From a virus (lineage: Duplodnaviria; Heunggongvirae; Uroviricota; Caudoviricetes): DNA of 12,347 nucleotides. The notes beneath the pieces were generated by a model. The model made no database searches and was not told the DNA's origin. It saw nothing but the letters and a program-made list of their open reading frames with translations. The stretch's first letter is position 1, and each line of letters begins with the position of its first letter. The stretch spans positions 1 to 12,347 of the IMG/VR virus record IMGVR_UViG_2541047882_000003. One strand, given 5' to 3'. Shown here piece by piece: positions 1 to 12,347 of this stretch. The translations under genes and the position numbers were made by a program.

Positions 1-372
1 TTACTTCCTGCGTTTATCCTGCTTTGTATGCCCGTGCTGAATGCCCCGCAGTGGATCTTCTTTTTTCAGGTCGATCCCCATGTCCGTTAGTGTTTTTGTG
101 GCGGCGGTTCTTATGGCACAAATCAGGTCTCTTTCCGGTTCCCGGGTTATGGTTGCCTTCCGGATGCATGCCGTTCGTCGTTCCGTTACATACTGACGCG
201 CTTCATCACTTGCCGCCTGTTTCAGTAACTCACCCCAGCGATTAGCCGCCCGTCGCCATAAACCTTTCGCTTCCAGTTCTTCCGCTTTGTCATCATGCAC
301 CATAAGCATAATCCCATTGATACCTGTTAAATCTGAATGGTTGGTTTCTGTTCTTTTGATAATTTTCCGCAT
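1..372 (-). CDS. PerC-family-like small transcriptional regulator (paralog 1)
   Basis: Complete ORF of 123 aa (ATG as reverse complement of 370-372, TAA as reverse complement of 1-3). Motif DDKAEELEAKGLWRRAANRW matches the conserved core I associate with PerC/Pch activators and is shared with the 95-aa paralog at 4277..4564 (DSKAEELEAKGLYRRAAARW...CIR.A). No good SD at 372; alignment with the paralog suggests the real start may be the internal ATG at 303. Confidence 0.6.
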   Translation of the reverse strand: MRKIIKRTETNHSDLTGINGIMLMVHDDKAEELEAKGLWRRAANRWGELLKQAASDEARQYVTERRTACIRKATITREPERDLICAIRTAATKTLTDMGIDLKKEDPLRGIQHGHTKQDKRRK

Positions 373-3435: not shown

Positions 3436-3945
3436 TTATTCCCCCTGGTGAATCTCCTGCACTACCTGCGGCGTGCTGTCGTGCCAGTCGTTAGCCTGTA
3501 TCACTCTGGTAGTAATTTGCCTGCACAGGTCATCAATAATCTGCCTGACGCGGTTTACTGCGTTCTGATTGATGCCTGCATCGTGCGCCAGAATGTCGGG
3601 GAGTTTTGCCAGTTCCTCGCTTAAGATTTTCCCAAAAATAACCAACTCCCTGCGCACATCCACGGCGGGGATAAGTTCAGCCGTTTCCTGCTCGAACTTA
3701 AGGCGCTCACGCTCAGACTGGTACCAGGCTTTACGGCTTTGTGGATCCATGTCTTCGAGTGATGCGGGGGCGGGTATATTCATGAATGCGCTGATTATAT
3801 CCGTCAGTCGGTACAGCTTTAATTTTTCATGCCCTCCGGCTGGCTGAATGTCCTTTAGCCTTTTCGCTACTGTCTGGCGGCAAACTCCCGCCAGTTCTGC
3901 GAGTTGATTGATATTAAGTTTCAGGTTTTTAAGCTCCCGATCCAT
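3436..3945 (-). CDS. phage small terminase subunit, lambda Nu1 family (TerS-like); longest ORF extends to 3984
   Basis: N-terminal LNINQLAELAGVCRQTVAKRLKD...EKLKLYRLTDIISAF aligns with the lambda Nu1 winged-HTH region (VNKKQLADIFGASIRTIQNWQEQ...NEVLYDSAAVIKWY), and the length is similar (169-182 aa against 181). GGAGG lies 4 nt upstream of the ATG at 3945, so I favour that start. No large terminase ORF follows. Confidence 0.7.
   Translation of the reverse strand: MDRELKNLKLNINQLAELAGVCRQTVAKRLKDIQPAGGHEKLKLYRLTDIISAFMNIPAPASLEDMDPQSRKAWYQSERERLKFEQETAELIPAVDVRRELVIFGKILSEELAKLPDILAHDAGINQNAVNRVRQIIDDLCRQITTRVIQANDWHDSTPQVVQEIHQGE
3444..3468. repeat. 25-bp direct repeat copy 2 (within the terS 3-prime end)
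   Basis: Exact match to 3068..3092. Confidence 0.85.
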
Positions 3946-4084
3946 TCGTCCTCCGGTAGTTTTAAATGCGTATCGTGCGCTCATCTTTCAGTGGGTTAAA
4001 AGTGTTCTGTATGTTGAACAAAAAACACCCCAAATTAACATAGTAAAAATATATTTCATTTTAATTCAACATGTTGGAAAGATG

Positions 4085-4276: not shown

Positions 4277-4564
4277 TCACTGGTTACCGCCAGGCTGCTT
4301 CGGGTAGTTCCGCCAGACGGATTTACCCGCGTCTTCCATCCCCATCACCGCATGAGTGCGGTTTACAGCCTCTTTCAGTGCCCCGAAGTTATCCGCCATA
4401 ACGGGTGGGCGTGCTGCCCTGCGGATGCATTCCGCGCGACGCTTTGCCACCTGTTCGCGCTCCTTATCGGTGTTCACCAGCTGCATGACCTCAGCCCACC
4501 GCGCCGCCGCTCTCCGGTACAGGCCTTTAGCCTCCAGTTCTTCCGCTTTGCTGTCACGAATCAT
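4277..4564 (-). CDS. PerC-family-like small transcriptional regulator (paralog 2)
   Basis: 95 aa with DSKAEELEAKGLYRRAAARWAEV, matching the paralog at 1..372. Its start overlaps the stop of the upstream gene (ATGA at 4561-4564), indicating translational coupling. Confidence 0.6.
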   Translation of the reverse strand: MIRDSKAEELEAKGLYRRAAARWAEVMQLVNTDKEREQVAKRRAECIRRAARPPVMADNFGALKEAVNRTHAVMGMEDAGKSVWRNYPKQPGGNQ

Positions 4565-5097
4565 GCGCCTGTCTTCTCCTTTGTCGCCTGACGTTTGCGC
4601 TTTTCATTCAGTGCTGCCAGCCGCGTTTCTGCCTCCTGCTGTTCCTGTGGTGTCACTTCCCCACATGGCTGGCCTTTCAGGTCGTAACGTGTGCCACCAG
4701 CCATTAAGGCGCGGTAATAGCGCGGAGACTGCGCATAAGATGCCAGCGTCGCACGTAATGCCCCCGGCCCGAATGTCAGCCCCCTGGCGGCGATATCCTG
4801 TATCAGGTCGTCGAATATCCCCACCTTAAGCGGCTTCGGTGCTTTATGGCTGAATAAGTCAGGCCACATCTCAGTGAGGCGGTTAACGCGTCGGCGGTTT
4901 TTGCGCTGCCTTTTGGTCATATGCTGCCACGGTGTCGCCCCTGCGGTCTTCTGTTTGCGGCTCTGCTGTGCGTTCTGATTATCGGGTATCACTTTATGCG
5001 CCGATGTGGTTTTATCCTGCTCTTGTGCCGCCTGCGTCGTTTTCTGCGGCGTGCCGTAAATGCCTTTCGGTTTTCGGTTAATGGTCAGCTTTGTCAT
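4561..5097 (-). CDS. ProQ/FinO-domain RNA-binding protein
   Basis: 178 aa. PLKVGIFDDLI and LRATLASYAQSPRYYRALMAGGTRYDLKGQPCGEVTPQEQQEAE align closely with the E. coli ProQ N-terminal FinO-like domain (PLKIGIFQDLV...LRSALRLYTSSWRYL..GATRVDLDGNPCGEL) as I remember it. It is preceded by a basic, Q/K-rich N-terminus. Confidence 0.8.
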   Translation of the reverse strand: MTKLTINRKPKGIYGTPQKTTQAAQEQDKTTSAHKVIPDNQNAQQSRKQKTAGATPWQHMTKRQRKNRRRVNRLTEMWPDLFSHKAPKPLKVGIFDDLIQDIAARGLTFGPGALRATLASYAQSPRYYRALMAGGTRYDLKGQPCGEVTPQEQQEAETRLAALNEKRKRQATKEKTGA

Positions 5098-5211
5098 GCC
5101 TTCCCCTGTAATTACGCTGTTCGCTGTTGTGAATTAAAACGGTATGTTATCCCCGTACGGGTCATCGTGCTGGCTTGTCTGTTGTTTTGCCCTGTTCAGT
5201 GCGTCAGTGGC

Positions 5212-5559
5212 CTAGCCCTGTTGACCTTTTTTGCCGCCCGGTCGCGCCGTTCGCGCACTGATTACGCTGTCTGCAATAACCTGCCAGCCCTGCCGCGTTT
5301 CCCCGTTCTGGCCTGTCCACTGGCTTACCTGCATGTTACCCGCCACGCTCACAAGTTCGCCTTTCTGGTGCTTTGCCAGTGCATCGGCCTGTCTGCCAAA
5401 TGCCAGGACGGATAACCACATCGTCGCCGTTCCGTCATCTGCCTGGCTGCACGGCAGGGGAACCGCCATACTCGCCATCGCCATTTGTGTCCCTTTGCTG
5501 GTGGTCTTTAACTGCGGGTCAGCCACCAGCCGCCCGTAAGCCGCTATCTGTGCTGTCAT
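5212..5559 (-). CDS. single-stranded DNA-binding protein-like (OB fold, no acidic C-terminal tail)
   Basis: 115 aa. IAAYGRLVADPQLK and TMWLSVLAFGRQADALAKHQKGELVSVAGNMQVSQWTGQNGETRQGWQVIADSV align with the E. coli SSB core (ILVGNLGQDPEV...[52 protein letters not shown]). GGAGAG lies 9 nt upstream; the start overlaps the upstream stop (ATGA). Confidence 0.7.
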   Translation of the reverse strand: MTAQIAAYGRLVADPQLKTTSKGTQMAMASMAVPLPCSQADDGTATMWLSVLAFGRQADALAKHQKGELVSVAGNMQVSQWTGQNGETRQGWQVIADSVISARTARPGGKKGQQG

Positions 5560-5906
5560 GCTGTATGCTCTCCGTTTTTAACGTTGATGGTTGTCACCTG
5601 TTCCGCTGTGCTGTTAGCCGGATACCATGCAAGCGTTCCCGGTTCATCTGAAAGAATGAATTTTGTGTCAGGCAAATACAGGCATTCGCAATATCCCTCT
5701 GCGCTGTGATGTGGTGTCATTCCCATATCACCAGTGAGTACCGGTAATATTTCAGAGTAAACCTCAGAATCACCGGAATAAAACACATCGCAAATCGCCC
5801 ATGCAGCAACCGGACTCCACCACTCGCCGCAATCGTCATTCCGGAATCTTGCCCACCAGCCAGGAACAGCCGGAGAAATGCTTTTTGGTATGGCTTCAAG
5901 AAACAT
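5556..5906 (-). CDS. hypothetical protein (116 aa, Trp-rich), translationally coupled to the SSB-like gene
   Basis: ORF with GAGGTG 7 nt upstream of the ATG at 5906. Its stop overlaps the SSB-like start. No family recognised. Confidence 0.55.
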   Translation of the reverse strand: MFLEAIPKSISPAVPGWWARFRNDDCGEWWSPVAAWAICDVFYSGDSEVYSEILPVLTGDMGMTPHHSAEGYCECLYLPDTKFILSDEPGTLAWYPANSTAEQVTTINVKNGEHTA

Positions 5907-5982
5907 AAAAACACCTCAATTTTTGTATATCTACAGAACCGTGTGGGTTACACCCGGCCTTTTTTCATCCATTACAGTGATA

Positions 5983-6133
5983 TTTTGCGGGTTATAATCG
6001 CGCTTTTGCGGGTTATTTAGGCCCATTTGCGGGTTATTTGGGGTATTTTGCGGGTTACGATTTTTCTGTCATTTCTTTAATAATCATATGGATACTGACT
6101 TATCCACAGAAATAACCCGCATAACCCGCAAAA
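5983..6133. repeat. iteron array (TTTGCGGGTTA x4 direct at 21-22 bp spacing, plus 2 inverted copies) with an AT-rich spacer; candidate replication origin
   Basis: Direct copies of TTTTGCGGGTTAT at 5983-5995, 6004-6016, 6025-6037 and 6047-6058. AT-rich stretch 6061-6100. Inverted copies ATAACCCGC (6112-6120) and ATAACCCGCAAAA (6121-6133). Located immediately downstream of the replication-protein stop at 6159. Confidence 0.6.
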
Positions 6134-6158
6134 TTTTCACCCTACACGCGAGAAAAAA

Positions 6159-8282
6159 TTAATCTTCTTCGCTTTCTGGCTGGAACATCAGCACGTAAAA
6201 AACATGCTGCTTCCCCCCAATCCTGCCGAGCGCCTTTTTCTTGTAACGGCGGTCGTTACCCTTTTCCAGCATCCCCGCCGCATCAAGCGCCCTTGCAAAA
6301 TGCGACGGATTAAATCCCTGTGCTATCTCACCCTCAAATACATGCGGGAACGTGTAAAAACGGAACTCGTCATCTTCGTTTCTGATACTCCCCTTTCTGT
6401 ATCCGGCAAGCTCTTTAATCGGTAAATCACGCTCGTCGGTGTTGGGCCACGGAAGGTATCTGCTGAATCCGAACGACGCTAAAAAAGCCTCTGCCTGTTC
6501 AACCATCTGTTTAAACTCCCTGTTACCCGTGCCGAATTCCTTCACCCAGGCATTAAAATTATGCTGAATGGCATCGCGGCATTCCTGCTCATCCCAGCCA
6601 GTAACATGACCGGAAAGCACAAGCGCGGCCTCCAGTATGGCGAAACGCTCACCCACACGGTGTACCTGCTCGCCGTAGCTCTCCGGTATCAGGTTGCGCC
6701 ACCGTTCTCGGCATGACCTTACCGTGTCCTTTGCCTCCTGCTGGTGGTCTGCCAGCCATTTAACCCATTCACGACCCGCCGCCCCGTGATTTTCTGTCCA
6801 GGCATCTTTTAACGCGTCTGCGTGCGCCTTTCCGGTGCTGTATTCGTGAAATTGTGTGGCTTTTTCCATCGGCACGTTAAGCAGGCGGACAAGCTGCCCC
6901 GCCTTGACTTTTATCCCCTCCGTTTTGAGGAATGTTTCAACGTCCATTTCTCCGGTACTGATTGCCACCGTTCTCCAGTGTTTTATCTCCCTGTTGCCGC
7001 CGTCCTTCGCCCCCTGTAATTTCCCGGAACCGTTAAACAGCGTATAAGCAGACGTTGACACCTCCCGCGCGTTTCCGGCCTGGCCTATTTCATCCAGGGG
7101 TAACAGCCCGTCGTTGTGTGCCTCTGCCTCGTTGGCGATACCTAACGCTGTACCGTACCAGGTCAGCCGTTGTGCGTCCGGCTCTCCCCATAAACTTGAT
7201 GCGATGTTCTGTGTGGTGGTTTTCCCTGCCGATGACTGTTCGAAAAGATGTACCCCGAAGCCGTCAGCACCCACCAGCCCGATTAATGGTGCAGATAACG
7301 ATACCGCCACACCCAGCATCATGGACGGATTACCACCAGCCAGCCGCGCAACGGTATCGCGCCAGCCTTCCGCCGTTCCTGCCACGGAATAGCCATTAAC
7401 AGCGGCAGTTTTTCCGGTAAACAGAATCGGTTTTTCAGACTCACCAATGACCGAACCGTCCGGCATGATGTACGCGCCAAAATGCCAGCCCGTTGTTGTG
7501 CTTAACTGCCATTCCTCATGGTTTCCGCTTAACTGCATCCAGTCAGCCAGGATAGCCCTGTATTTGCCGTTGGTTGTCACGTTCAGGCCGTGGTCTTTCA
7601 GCAACCGCCAGCCGTCACGGTCGCCAATGCCACCGCACGGAATCGCCATTGTGATGACTTCATGATTTGCTGGCTTTTTCCAGCGCATCACGCGGTAATG
7701 CTCTTTACCGATTGTCCCCGTTCCCAGTAGTTCAAGCGGGGAACATAACCACGTCTCAGGCCGGATAATTTCGCCTGACTGCTTGTCAACTTTTGGCGTT
7801 ACCCAGAAAACACCATCGGCGCGGCTTTCAACGCGGGGCTTTAATTCATCATCGCTATAGCTTCCTGTGGCTTTTTTCTTTAAGGGCAACACCAGACTTT
7901 CCCCGCGCTCGTATTCGTCTTTCAGCCGGGCAAGCTGTGGTGTCCAGTCCTCCAGTAAATCGCCGTTCTCGTCACAAAAACAGGCTTCCTTAACACCAGC
8001 CACTGCCAGCAGGGTTTCAATCTGTAGCGCCAGTTTGTCATCCAGTTTTCCGGCACGTCTGACGATGGCGCGTGACCGACCCTCATCCACAATACGCAGG
8101 TTTTCCAGATTACCCAGGTCACGCCGTCCGAGATAAACAGGTGGTATTTTGTCGCCGCGCTTTCTGGCTTCTCCGCCCTGCATGTAATGCTCTGCGTGGC
8201 TGTATGCGTCATCCCCCGCAAAAATCACTGCATCCTCGCCTTTATCTTTCGGTAACAGTTTTACGTTCGGTGCCAGTTTCAT
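6159..8282 (-). CDS. replication protein with P-loop NTPase domain (putative primase/helicase-type initiator of the element)
   Basis: 707-aa ORF. Walker A-like SSAGKTT and Walker B-like LLPLDE are visible. Its start overlaps the upstream stop (ATGA at 8279-8282) and an iteron array follows its stop. Assignment to a specific primase/helicase family is not verified. Confidence 0.75.
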   Translation of the reverse strand: MKLAPNVKLLPKDKGEDAVIFAGDDAYSHAEHYMQGGEARKRGDKIPPVYLGRRDLGNLENLRIVDEGRSRAIVRRAGKLDDKLALQIETLLAVAGVKEACFCDENGDLLEDWTPQLARLKDEYERGESLVLPLKKKATGSYSDDELKPRVESRADGVFWVTPKVDKQSGEIIRPETWLCSPLELLGTGTIGKEHYRVMRWKKPANHEVITMAIPCGGIGDRDGWRLLKDHGLNVTTNGKYRAILADWMQLSGNHEEWQLSTTTGWHFGAYIMPDGSVIGESEKPILFTGKTAAVNGYSVAGTAEGWRDTVARLAGGNPSMMLGVAVSLSAPLIGLVGADGFGVHLFEQSSAGKTTTQNIASSLWGEPDAQRLTWYGTALGIANEAEAHNDGLLPLDEIGQAGNAREVSTSAYTLFNGSGKLQGAKDGGNREIKHWRTVAISTGEMDVETFLKTEGIKVKAGQLVRLLNVPMEKATQFHEYSTGKAHADALKDAWTENHGAAGREWVKWLADHQQEAKDTVRSCRERWRNLIPESYGEQVHRVGERFAILEAALVLSGHVTGWDEQECRDAIQHNFNAWVKEFGTGNREFKQMVEQAEAFLASFGFSRYLPWPNTDERDLPIKELAGYRKGSIRNEDDEFRFYTFPHVFEGEIAQGFNPSHFARALDAAGMLEKGNDRRYKKKALGRIGGKQHVFYVLMFQPESEED

Positions 8283-8593
8283 TTTGCTTTTCCCCGTTCA
8301 CGAATAATTTCACGTACTGCCTTAATGCGTTCCATACCTGTAACGCGCATGATTCTGTCGATGTCGCTTAAGTTCGCTGGTGGTGCTTTGCTTACCAGGG
8401 TGAATTCACTCTCAAAACGCATATGTGACGACACGCAGGGATGCGCATAACCTTCGCGAATATAAGTCACGCGAAAATCGTCAACGGTTTTTATCGTTAT
8501 TCGTCCACCATATTTATCTTTGAAAATATCGCCGGGGCGGATTTCAGGCCGAGCGGGGCCGCTGGCAGTAAAGCCAGAAATTTTCTGTTTCAT
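8279..8593 (-). CDS. hypothetical protein (104 aa), coupled to the replication protein
   Basis: ORF with ATG at 8593; 4-nt overlap with the downstream rep start. No family recognised with confidence. Confidence 0.6.
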   Translation of the reverse strand: MKQKISGFTASGPARPEIRPGDIFKDKYGGRITIKTVDDFRVTYIREGYAHPCVSSHMRFESEFTLVSKAPPANLSDIDRIMRVTGMERIKAVREIIRERGKAK

Positions 8594-9070: not shown

Positions 9071-9290
9071 TTTCACAATCAGCAATCAGGATAGCCCTGG
9101 CCTCATTCAGTGCCATATCAGCACTAAATTGCATAACAGCCAGTGAGTGAGGAACGAAAGCCCCGGCATATTCTGTTTCGCTGGTGGCGTACTTATGCGC
9201 CTTGTCTGCGATAACAGAAATATCAATCAGCGCATCAATCAGTGTTTTTATAGCTTCGGCGGCTGCGTCCGGACGGGTGTTATTGCACAT
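9051..9290 (-). CDS. hypothetical protein (79 aa)
   Basis: ATG at 9290 with AGGAGG upstream; the start overlaps the stop of the 68-aa ORF (ATGTGCAATAA). Its C-terminus is encoded across the G8 tract. Confidence 0.55.
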   Translation of the reverse strand: MCNNTRPDAAAEAIKTLIDALIDISVIADKAHKYATSETEYAGAFVPHSLAVMQFSADMALNEARAILIADCENGGGYA

Positions 9291-9486
9291 GGCGTACCTC
9301 CTGACGAATACGGGCGGCGAATACCATCACGCAACCAGCCGGGGATTGCTGGCGTGCTTCCTGTTCGCTGGTGGCCTCGATGGTAATCACGCGCGGTTGT
9401 GCCGTGCTCAGGGCGATAAAACGCCAGATGTATTTATTCAGGTTGTGCGAGTCCCGCCCTTGCTGGTGTGTGGTATAATTTCTCAT
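9280..9486 (-). CDS. hypothetical protein (68 aa), first gene of the leftward replication operon
   Basis: ATG at 9486 with GAGGT 6 nt upstream. It is the in-frame C-terminal part of the spurious 371-aa track ORF. Its stop overlaps the next start. Confidence 0.5.
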   Translation of the reverse strand: MRNYTTHQQGRDSHNLNKYIWRFIALSTAQPRVITIEATSEQEARQQSPAGCVMVFAARIRQEVRHVQ

Positions 9487-9581
9487 AGCTACCTCGATAC
9501 TCTCGTTATCGTTGGTGGTTAGAGGCTGCGAAAGGACGGCAATCCTTTCCAGCCTCGTTTGCATTGAGTGATAGTTACTCA

Positions 9582-9664
9582 ACTGGATTCCAGTATAATC
9601 ACTAAGTGGAATCCACTTCAAGCATTTTGTTTTGGTCTTTTTCGTGTATACTGGATTCCAGTAA
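9582..9664. promoter_or_regulatory. divergent control region with three odd-length palindromes (candidate operators) overlapping -10-like hexamers
   Basis: ACTGGATTCCAGT at 9582-9594 and again at 9651-9663 (CTGGA-T-TCCAG), and GTGGAATCCAC at 9607-9617. TATAAT at 9593-9598 and TATACT at 9647-9652 on the plus strand. Lies between the minus-strand operon start (9486) and the plus-strand small gene (9683). Confidence 0.45.
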
Positions 9665-9682
9665 TCACAAAGGAAACCAGAA

Positions 9683-9862
9683 ATGGAAAGAGACCATATC
9701 AATAACAAATCACAGAAATTACAGGCTCGCGCCCCGCATGAAGTTGTTGAGGCAATGGAGCAAGTCAAAGAAACGGGCGAGAGTACTGCGCAGTTTATCG
9801 TTACAGCCATGCGTGGCGAGATCAAACGCCGCCAGCGCCGCAAGGCCAAAGAGCAGGAGTAA
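9683..9862 (+). CDS. small ribbon-helix-helix-like DNA-binding protein (59 aa); candidate repressor
   Basis: Not in the supplied track (below its length cutoff). ATG at 9683 with AGGAA 7-8 nt upstream; TAA at 9860-9862. The translation MERDHINNKSQKLQARAPHEVVEAMEQVKETGESTAQFIVTAMRGEIKRRQRRKAKEQE has a strand-helix-helix pattern typical of Arc/CopG-type proteins. Confidence 0.5.
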   Translation: MERDHINNKSQKLQARAPHEVVEAMEQVKETGESTAQFIVTAMRGEIKRRQRRKAKEQE

Positions 9863-9919
9863 CCATCACCAGCGCCGTGGTGCGGTGAACTGTGGCGCAC
9901 AGGGTTATAGGTATCTACG

Positions 9920-10117
9920 ATGACTGACAAATCATTAAAGAAATTATCCTCATCCAGGAAAAAACAACGCAAAAACGCGGTAAGAGAACATGAACAGGAA
10001 AGATTCGCGCCATGTGCGTTTGTCCTTGAAAAGTTCCTTAAAGAGTACAGGCGCACAAAAATGGGATCGCATGCCTGGAAAACATCGCAGCATGGCGATA
10101 CTAAAGAGCAGGAATAG
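9920..10117 (+). CDS. hypothetical small basic protein (65 aa)
   Basis: ATG at 9920 with AGG 8 nt upstream; Lys/Arg-rich. Followed about 100 nt later by a plus-strand terminator. Confidence 0.4.
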   Translation: MTDKSLKKLSSSRKKQRKNAVREHEQERFAPCAFVLEKFLKEYRRTKMGSHAWKTSQHGDTKEQE

Positions 10118-10220
10118 CCCACCAGCAAGCCAGCACACTGATCACATTGCCCACCAGCCGCAAATGTGGCATTGTTGATTATGCTCATGCGTTGGCGATA
10201 ACGTGTAGCTTGTGTCGAAG

Positions 10221-10248
10221 GGCCACCGTAGCGGGTGGCCTTTGTTTT
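10221..10248 (+). terminator. rho-independent terminator for the plus-strand small genes
   Basis: GGCCACC (10221-10227) / GGTGGCC (10234-10240) stem followed by TTTGTTTT. Confidence 0.5.
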
Positions 10249-10399
10249 GCCTGTTATCCGGCAATTGTGGCGCTTCGCCACACGGTTGATATAATTCTCC
10301 TGCACTGATCCATTTTTTTCGCAGCAGGTTAATTGTTCGCAAGGGCGCTCCGGCAACGGGGCGCTTTTTGTTATGTTCATCGCGTTACGCCTCACACCA

Positions 10400-10606
10400 T
10401 TACGCAGCCGTTCCGCGCGCTTCTTCCTCGCGCTCTTTCAGCCAGGCCAGCACTTCATCTTCATACCAGCCAACACGACGCAGACCGATTTTGAAGCCTT
10501 TCGGGAATTTTCCGGCGTTGATCATGTCCTGTAGCGAACTGTCTGCCTTGATGCGCAGAATATTTTTTACTTCCTGACGGGTAAGTATTTTTCTGATTGT
10601 TTCCAC
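10400..10606 (-). CDS. alpA: AlpA-family phage transcriptional regulator
   Basis: 68 aa. ILTRQEV..IL........DMINAGKFPK...GLRRVGWYEDEVLAWL matches the AlpA pattern (LRL..V......A..T.Y.W......P...........VGW.E.E...WL). GAGGT about 8 nt upstream of the ATG. Position relative to a P4-type int is typical. Confidence 0.75.
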   Translation of the reverse strand: METIRKILTRQEVKNILRIKADSSLQDMINAGKFPKGFKIGLRRVGWYEDEVLAWLKEREEEARGTAA

Positions 10607-11105: not shown

Positions 11106-12347
11106 TTACACGGCACGGATACCCCTTTTACCACTGGCTATGGTCACTCCGGTAGCTGCGGCCTCTACAAATTCCCCCCACCAGCGCATAAGCACCACGC
11201 GCTTTTCCAGGTAGTTACTTCGGTTATATGCTCGCCTTACCTCGTTTGTGTCCACGTGTGCGAGTGCGGCCTCGATTACGTCCGGCTCGAATCCTTCCTC
11301 GTTCGCTGCTGTACTGAATATGGCGCGTAATCCGTGAGACACCAGCACACCAGCGTAACCCATCCGGCGCAATGCGGCGTTAGCTGTCTGGCTGCTCATT
11401 GGCAGCATTGGATTTTTAAGGCTGGGAAAAACGTGTTCCCTGTGTGCGCTGATTGGCTTCATGGTTTCCAGTACAGCCATAGCCTGACCGCAAAGGGGGA
11501 TCACGTGGTCACGGCGCATCTTCATGCGTCCGGCTGGAATCGTCCAGGTTTCGGCATCGAGATCTATTTCTTCCCAGCGTGCGGCGGCTGCTTCGGCTGG
11601 GCGTGCTACGGTCAGCAGTTGCCACTCAATCAGCAATCTGGTTTGCCGTTCTATGCTGGCGACCGATAAATCGTGCATTAGCTGCGGTAGCTGTTCCGGT
11701 CGGATGGTTGGCATGTGCTTTTTGGTGGGTGAGGGGAATGCCTTGCGGACGTTCGCGGCGGTGTTGATGTCAATCAGCCCACTGTTGGCAGCAAAATCCA
11801 TCACTTCATTGATGCGTTGTAAAACGCGTTTCAGAGTTTCCAGGTTGCCGCGTGCTTTAATGGGTGTGAGTATCTCAACAAAGCGGCGAGCTGTGAGGGT
11901 ATCTATTGGCGTGTTTCCGATGTACGGGAATACGTATTTTTCCAGGGATCGCCAGATATCCTTAATCGTGTTGTAAGCCAGATTCTGGCCTTTTTTCATC
12001 TCGTACCAGTCCGAGGCAACTTTTTCGAACGTGTTGCCCTTTTTCCGACTCTCTGCTTCACGTTTCCGGCGTTCGTGGTCCTGTGGGTCAACTCCCTTCG
12101 CTATGAGTGACCTGTATTCATTCCGTCGTTCTCTGGCATCGGACAGGGAAACATCATTCAGCGATCCGAGGCTGATGATAGTCCGTTTTTTATCTGCCGG
12201 GCGGTAGTACGTAAAACGCCAGATTTTTGATCCGGAGGGTTTCACCAGAAGAAATAATCCTCCACCATCCTGCAGGGTGTATTCCTTTTCCCCTGGTCGT
12301 GCGTTTTTGATCTCCGTGATGGTTAGTGGAGTGGTTTTTCGTGCCAT
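11106..12347 (-). CDS. int: tyrosine-type site-specific integrase, P4-like
   Basis: 413 aa. N-terminal DGGGLFLLVKPSGSKIWRFTYY arm-binding-like region and C-terminal HGLRAIFST ... AALAHVDTNEVRRAYNRSNY catalytic region (H-x-x-R and the terminal Tyr) are typical of P4-family integrases. The ATG is the last three bases of the window, so the upstream region and att site are not visible. Confidence 0.9.
   Translation of the reverse strand: MARKTTPLTITEIKNARPGEKEYTLQDGGGLFLLVKPSGSKIWRFTYYRPADKKRTIISLGSLNDVSLSDARERRNEYRSLIAKGVDPQDHERRKREAESRKKGNTFEKVASDWYEMKKGQNLAYNTIKDIWRSLEKYVFPYIGNTPIDTLTARRFVEILTPIKARGNLETLKRVLQRINEVMDFAANSGLIDINTAANVRKAFPSPTKKHMPTIRPEQLPQLMHDLSVASIERQTRLLIEWQLLTVARPAEAAAARWEEIDLDAETWTIPAGRMKMRRDHVIPLCGQAMAVLETMKPISAHREHVFPSLKNPMLPMSSQTANAALRRMGYAGVLVSHGLRAIFSTAANEEGFEPDVIEAALAHVDTNEVRRAYNRSNYLEKRVVLMRWWGEFVEAAATGVTIASGKRGIRAV

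Follow-up and report, generated by a model that had tools for sequence, protein, structure and literature searches.

The single-stranded DNA-binding protein (SSB) annotated as a 115-aa product in this phage-inducible chromosomal island (PICI) is very probably an ordinary satellite SSB that carries a private amber codon in one strain. It is accompanied by an independent upstream gene, orf116, and does not appear to have evolved a tail-less design. What looks like a tail-less SSB is best read as a private nonsense allele, limited to one strain, of a common SSB that has a tail, and the value of this reading lies mainly in a correct annotation. The analysis covers one stretch of 12,347 nucleotides, called the window below. 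A preliminary description of the window had proposed that an SSB without the acidic tail is coupled to an unrecognised Trp-rich protein. Its two ORFs are present as described, both on the minus strand, with 115 aa and with 116 aa including 6 Trp. Its functional interpretation is revised here.

The island and its replication module

The window is a cos-type Gram-negative PICI, whose insertion site in E. coli UMEA 3150-1 is tRNA-Pro, with yejM on one side and yejO on the other. It is 100% identical to contig KE701672.1 of this strain. The near-identical island of strain VTB97432v is flanked by tRNA-Pro/yejM and yejO. The features by which PICIs are recognised (PMC6092414) are present: an integrase at one end, an AlpA-type regulator, an operon running in one direction and a pri-rep gene followed by an iteron ori. 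In addition, the island is devoid of phage structural and lysis genes, falls into the size range of about 10-15 kb and contains a TerS-like gene and cos-like stretches. Its main features are:

11106-12347, minus strand: integrase
10400-10606, minus strand: Phage_AlpA regulator
8279-8593, minus strand: DUF4222 protein
6159-8282, minus strand: DUF927 primase/helicase (Pri-Rep), upstream of the ori (PF06048, E 3e-46; phrog_1139 DNA primase, E 3.4e-177)
about 5950-6140: intergenic origin
5984-6134: iteron ori found by repeat search, with four direct TTTGCGGGTTA(T/C), one every 21 bp (5984-6058), followed by an AT-rich spacer and by copies in inverted orientation (6110-6134)
4561-5097, minus strand: ProQ/FinO-domain protein, 178 aa, the conserved downstream neighbour of ssb (PF04352, E 7.6e-25)
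4277-4564, minus strand: PerC, a PerC-family protein
3436-3984, minus strand: DUF1441 TerS-like protein, matching phrog_141 (terminase small subunit)

The replication module is thus ordered DUF927 primase/helicase, iteron ori, orf116, ssb, ProQ/FinO, PerC. The AT-rich spacer of the ori comprises ~50 bp and is followed by two to three inverted iteron copies. Two iteron sets flanking an AT-rich spacer are the published ori layout of Gram-negative PICIs (PMC6092414), and the ori of the window matches it. Helper-dependent induction, replication and packaging have been demonstrated for a relative, the prototype E. coli PICI EcCICFT073 (PMC6092414, PMC6739421). The order primase, ori, small gene, ssb is also found in EcCICFT073, which is located beside phoQ, and in the capsid-forming PICI of JP538. 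The island SSB itself is already known: The gene is named "single-stranded DNA-binding protein" by PGAP, and SSB has been listed with primase and DUF5906 among the PICI replication genes that colocalise with mapped origins (PMC10111431). Downstream, the order ssb, ProQ/FinO recurs in seven of the loci compared (L001, L003, L005, L010, L011, L013 and L023). It is kept in classical as well as capsid-forming PICIs and in several genera. The ProQ/FinO and PerC genes (4277-5097), which lie directly 3' of ssb, overlap by ATGA. ProQ/FinO is an RNA-chaperone domain.

Several observations concern the remainder of the window. Between ~1300 and 3400, about 2 kb lack a convincing ORF and hold two cos-like segments, 1392-1656 and 2419-2661. 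One cos-like segment has 88-91% identity to phages HannyBb, Tritos and cdtI, at their left end and the start of terS, and the second one has 74-77% identity to the cos-Nu1 region of phage 21 / PhiR5_1. EcCICFT073 has likewise been reported with two cos sites. A second PerC-family gene is found at the left edge of the window (1-372) and is listed from position 1. The 371-aa ORF at 9280-10395, which starts with GTG, is probably spurious. Related annotated islands hold several small genes there (Icd-like, hypothetical). On the opposite strand, related annotated islands have a YlcI/YnfO gene (window 9683-9862). Rfam searches at the gathering threshold yielded 0 matches in the window and, hence, no known ncRNA or recoding element. 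PADLOC detected no defence genes among nine window proteins. A promoter scan around the operon found 2 candidates, compared to 1.7 expected from shuffled sequence. Terminator-like signals were set aside: All of them are on the plus strand, opposite to the genes.

The SSB and its amber codon

The ssb reading frame and its continuation comprise the following elements:

5212-5559, minus strand: truncated ssb ORF, 115 aa, consisting of the OB-fold domain and the start of the linker; it ends at the amber codon TAG (5212-5214)
5214, minus strand: private single-base change, plus strand A instead of the G of relatives, coding strand TAG instead of CAG (Gln116)
5134-5211, minus strand: orphaned in-frame tail, 25 codons ATDALNRAKQQTSQHDDPYGDNIPF and the ancestral TAA stop (5134-5136); rest of the linker and SSB C-terminal tip

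Profiles and the predicted structure confirm the proposal that the 115-aa protein is a genuine homolog of SSBs with an OB fold. A profile search, which the preliminary description had named as a way to disprove this homology, finds it: The product scores 60.1 bits against PF00436 (SSB; cut-off 26, E 2.4e-16) in the Pfam search and matches phrog_44 (single-strand DNA-binding protein) with E 2.4e-35. The read-through sequence matches TIGR00621 with 63 bits, above the cut-off of 53.95. By sequence, 27 distinct solved SSBs in the PDB are matched. The best among them are SSBs of Thermus and Thermotoga and Gram-positive SsbA/SsbB, and the matches to enterobacterial SSBs are weaker than those to Thermus and Gram-positive proteins. 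In the AF2 model (pLDDT 84, pTM 0.72), the strands are those expected of an SSB, and residues 55-62 form a helix. When the model was compared with the PDB by Foldseek, the top 50 matches were all bacterial SSBs (probability 1.00, TM ~0.65-0.78). The model agrees with the SSB fold, a five-stranded beta-barrel with one helix between strands 3 and 4, and is superposable on solved SSBs.

Pairwise alignment with E. coli SSB yields 26% identity over the OB domain. In E. coli SSB, the aromatic residues W40, W54, F60 and W88 stack on ssDNA. W54, F60 and W88 of E. coli SSB correspond to W48, F54 and W81 in the island SSB. W40 is replaced by Gln39 within a shortened loop, and the tetramer-interface residue His55 by Leu49. 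Due to these last two replacements, the oligomeric state and the binding mode of the island SSB may differ. As the whole OB domain is retained, the truncated SSB probably still folds and binds ssDNA, but would do so without recruiting partners.

The Gly/Lys-rich end that had been described for the annotated ORF is literally there: The product terminates with RPGGKKGQQG. The claim of a missing acidic tail stands for the annotated ORF, which has no tip, but not for the gene. Translation past the TAG (5212-5214) continues for the 25 codons listed above and ends ...HDDPYGDNIPF, followed by TAA. The acidic C-terminal tip of E. coli SSB reads ...DFDDDIPF. The tip is, hence, absent from the ORF of the window and present in its in-frame continuation (...DDPYGDNIPF). 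At the amber position, TUM1881, VTB97432v and JP538 have CAG, and close relatives are 140-141 aa long; overall, relatives with CAG (Gln) encode proteins of 136-149 aa. TUM1881 is the closest complete genome. Its SSB has 140 aa, shares residues 1-115 with the protein of the window and ends ...DDPYGDNIPF. In the part encoding the OB domain, the two sequences differ at 5 nucleotides, and 5/5 differences are synonymous. Compared with JP538 over the 61-mer 5183-5243, the sole mismatch is position 5214 (plus strand A vs G). The orphaned tail has the same sequence as in four homologs of full length, P0010, P0038, P0045 and P0057. As no decay is visible behind the stop, the base change is either recent or a base-call error. 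The TAG allele appears to be a recent private nonsense mutation, with the base-call error being less likely. A single C-to-T transition would have converted Gln116 (CAG) into amber (TAG) and would cut off the last 25 residues in this one strain.

The allele is rare. Among 153 billion gene positions, the exact 115-aa protein (ERB19749.1) was found on 1 contig, KE701672.1 of UMEA 3150-1, while the 141-aa form in the same 90% cluster is present on 428 contigs. The full-length 61-mer is present in 973 complete E. coli genomes, none of which matches the TAG allele exactly; the best have one mismatch. In contrast, the tip is well conserved: 107 of the 120 best homolog clusters end IPF, and most others LPF, VPF, APF or ISF. 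An acidic run and PF also terminate the SSBs of E. albertii, Enterobacter, Leclercia, Citrobacter, Pectobacterium, Edwardsiella and Scandinavium. Together with the in-frame continuation, these 107 clusters indicate that loss of the tip is allelic and not a family trait. The clade keeps the tip, and its absence as a trait of an orthologous group, as in SsbB, was not found. Taillessness as an evolved property is not supported by these data, since it depends on one C-to-T change (CAG to TAG) in one strain of a family that otherwise ends with the acidic D-x-I-P-F tip.

Other broken ssb alleles occur sporadically. Frameshifts are found around an A6 run (P0143, P0097, P0146), another one lies earlier in the gene (P0145, 21 contigs), P0155 is interrupted by a stop, and the copy of Pectobacterium zantedeschiae is truncated. 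The A6 run is located at 5227-5232 (coding strand GGC AAA AAA GGT), and the independent frameshifts P0143 and P0097 start at or near it, which suggests that it might be a slippage-prone site. The scattered broken alleles fit an occasional decay of ssb, with the gene being silent while the island is integrated.

The SSB clade appears, from the sequences searched, to be satellite-specific. Among 50,697 phage genomes, no close relative was found; the best match has 31% identity, and the matches are mostly to Gram-positive phages. Plasmid relatives amount to only a handful with ~70% identity. A recent acquisition of the SSB from a helper phage was rejected in view of the 31% identity of the best phage match.

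Three other explanations of the short ORF have to be weighed against a private nonsense mutation. According to the original proposal, an evolved tail-less SSB coats ssDNA without host factors and forms a module with its Trp-rich partner, e.g. for interference with the helper. The annotated ORF has no tip, its frame overlaps that of orf116 by ATGA, tail-less paralogs such as B. subtilis SsbB are known elsewhere, and the SsbB OB domain is among the PDB matches. However, the tail is intact in frame past one amber codon, the allele is private to one strain, and the family keeps its tip. The two-protein module is further weakened by the pairing with orf116 in just 23/5426 genomes and by orf116 relatives that occur without ssb. 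Helper interference is not favoured either: When the post-ori genes of EcCICFT073 were cloned singly, none except rppA caused a drop in lambda plaquing (PMC6739421). This proposal is largely refuted and has next to no probability left. More credit, but still little, can be given to an error in the UMEA 3150-1 draft, made in sequencing or assembly; the SSB of the strain would then have its full 141 aa. Such an error would account for a one-base difference in a single assembly with a perfectly intact downstream tail. Nevertheless, Illumina consensus assemblies seldom contain substitution errors, and real disrupted ssb alleles are found on several contigs each, so that such mutations do arise. 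Finally, the amber codon might be read through by a supE-type glnV suppressor or by leaky termination, and some full-length tailed SSB would be made. A glutamine-inserting amber suppressor would reverse exactly the change from CAG to TAG, and the frame of the tail is intact. By contrast, there is no sign of a suppressor in the clinical isolate UMEA 3150-1, and basal UAG read-through is low. Moreover, the allele is private and shows no sign of a maintained recoding signal, and Rfam reveals no structured element in the window. Read-through is, hence, extremely improbable, and a private nonsense mutation in an ordinary satellite ssb gene remains the preferred explanation.

orf116 and the junction ahead of ssb

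Two elements lie between the ori and the ssb start codon:

5556-5906, minus strand: orf116, 116 aa, 6 Trp, predicted all-beta; first gene after the ori
5560-5607, minus strand: ssb leader and mosaic junction, 48 nt, which encodes the C-terminal ...AEQVTTINVKNGEHTA of the upstream gene and carries GGAG before the ssb ATG

orf116 has a Shine-Dalgarno sequence, GAGGTG, 5 nt ahead of its ATG. Its stop codon and the ssb start codon overlap as ATGA, and the GGAG is located 10 nt 5' of the ssb ATG. The two genes had been described as coupled. The overlapping frames hold true, but the pairing is rare: Of 5426 complete E. coli genomes, only 23 contain at least 80% of orf116, while 1373 contain its last 48 nt, the ssb leader. 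A query spanning ssb and orf116 matches 1324/5426 complete E. coli genomes at megablast stringency, mostly via its ssb part. At the same overlapping junction, EcCICFT073, the capsid-forming PICI of JP538 and a Shigella flexneri island have an unrelated 81-92-aa gene whose product also terminates with ...AEQVTTINVKNGEHTA. The unrelated upstream proteins all end AEQVTTINVK(T/N)GE, encoded by the junction 5560-5607. By sequence comparison, the 48-nt junction resembles a joint at which cassettes in front of ssb are exchanged by recombination. orf116 would have inherited the shared ssb leader, which explains the ATGA overlap. Since the overlap belongs to this leader, it indicates nothing specific to the orf116-ssb pair.

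That the 116-aa protein is unrecognised was confirmed, as no library tried gave it a family identity. It has no match in Pfam, NCBIfam or PADLOC, no match by Foldseek against viral structures at E <=0.001 and no tblastn match in 50,697 phage genomes. It matches phrog_27268, a PHROG of unknown function, with E 1.8e-11. A word-indexed search recovered relatives in 10 clusters. An exhaustive search of 1.84 billion representatives yielded 19 matches, all of ~60-150 aa except one. P0187 (1152 aa), which matches in five stretches, was judged spurious, as it is a repetitive LGFP/RTX protein. The family is about 90-120 aa in length and has the motifs PGWWA.F, PVAAWALC, ILPV..GM and LYLPD.KF. orf116 represents a small, narrow orphan family that is predicted to be all-beta.

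The gene is not a dedicated partner of the SSB: Its position is filled by other genes or by none, and its relatives occur without an adjoining ssb. In the S. flexneri island, an orf116-type gene and the 81-92-aa gene are arranged in tandem ahead of an ssb remnant. Between primase/ori and ssb, 9 of 12 loci from enterobacterial species have no convincing gene and 2 of 12 a PerC-like gene. The E. albertii locus (L005) is without orf116, although its primase is 77% identical. In E. coli GCA_012725375.1 (L022, 5001-5874), a 50%-identical relative lies between the DUF927 gene and ProQ/FinO without ssb and is directly fused to the ProQ/FinO gene. In Salmonella GCA_011546955.1 (L023, 5001-7216), the orf116 relative is followed by an integrase-family gene, a 104-aa gene and only then ssb. 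In every context recovered, orf116 takes the first position behind the primase/helicase gene and the ori; this applies to the window, L022 and L023 with their DUF927-type gene as well as to L020 with its shorter primase.

orf116 might still cooperate functionally with the island SSB or the replisome, e.g. as a loader or regulator at the ori. This constant first position, the strong Shine-Dalgarno sequence GAGGTG and the conserved Trp-rich motifs GWWA and PVAAWALC argue for such a role. On the other hand, orf116 is missing from most islands with the same ssb and similar primases (e.g. E. albertii L005), L022 lacks ssb, and neither a fold nor a family match was obtained, so that a partner role is unlikely. 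Somewhat more room can be given to a doubtful but wider reading, in which the family has an undescribed fold and acts after the ori as a new factor for replication control, helper interference or counter-defence, independent of the SSB. The position that orf116 occupies between ori and ssb is variable, and the gene is most likely independent of ssb; our best guess on its role, with low confidence, is that of an accessory gene in the post-ori operon.

Proposed mechanism and comparison with known systems

Homology and gene position suggest how the intact island SSB might act. Upon induction by a helper phage, the DNA would be opened by the island Pri-Rep at the AT-rich spacer that separates the two iteron sets. 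The exposed single strands would then be coated by the island SSB, whose tip would dock host proteins that read the SSB C-terminus. Partners of the host SSB tip include the Pol III chi subunit, DnaG, PriA, RecQ and ExoI. The truncation is probably tolerated, as the cell has its host SSB and pri-rep-ori can by itself sustain replication. For EcCICFT073, a pri-ori fragment alone maintains a plasmid (PMC6092414). When the post-ori genes of EcCICFT073 were expressed singly, only c1503 (rppA) lowered lambda plaquing; judging by the description of these experiments, the genes assayed probably included the ssb homolog (PMC6739421). By analogy with EcCICFT073, these data suggest that the island ssb may be dispensable or at least non-toxic (PMC6092414, PMC6739421).

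For the PICI SSB clade, which has no close relative among sequenced phages, no experimental characterisation was found in the literature. The private amber allele would offer a tail-less SSB of natural origin, with which consequences for the replication of satellite and helper could be measured. The 48-nt ssb leader marks what looks like a recombination joint at which different genes swap in ahead of ssb. orf116, a small orphan family, would be cheap to test for a laboratory working on satellite biology.

The closest known counterpart is the SSB of EcCICFT073 (WP_000126698.1, 136 aa, cluster P0082), which belongs to the same clade and has 82% identity to the read-through protein of the window. 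Its gene likewise follows primase and ori and forms an overlapping junction with a small upstream gene. However, the EcCICFT073 SSB is complete and ends ...GGDDPYGDDIPF, whereas the copy in the window is cut by the amber codon. Furthermore, the gene ahead of ssb in EcCICFT073 encodes an 85-aa protein unrelated to orf116. With E. coli chromosomal SSB (PF00436/TIGR00621; PDB 1EQQ, 1EYG), the island family has the OB fold and the acidic tip with IPF in common. Island SSBs comprise ~140 aa compared to 178 aa of the chromosomal protein, and their linker is far shorter. It is common for mobile elements such as phages and conjugative plasmids to encode an SSB of their own whose tip resembles that of the host protein, as does the island family; one phage SSB-like protein ends FDDDIPF (bioRxiv 10.64898/2026.04.29.721553). 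B. subtilis SsbB (PDB 3VDY) has about 113-116 aa and an OB fold, and the truncated product of the window resembles it in the loss of the tip. SsbB is a naturally tail-less SSB paralog, whose family as a whole lacks the tip. By contrast, the island family keeps its tip, and one strain has lost it by a nonsense mutation.
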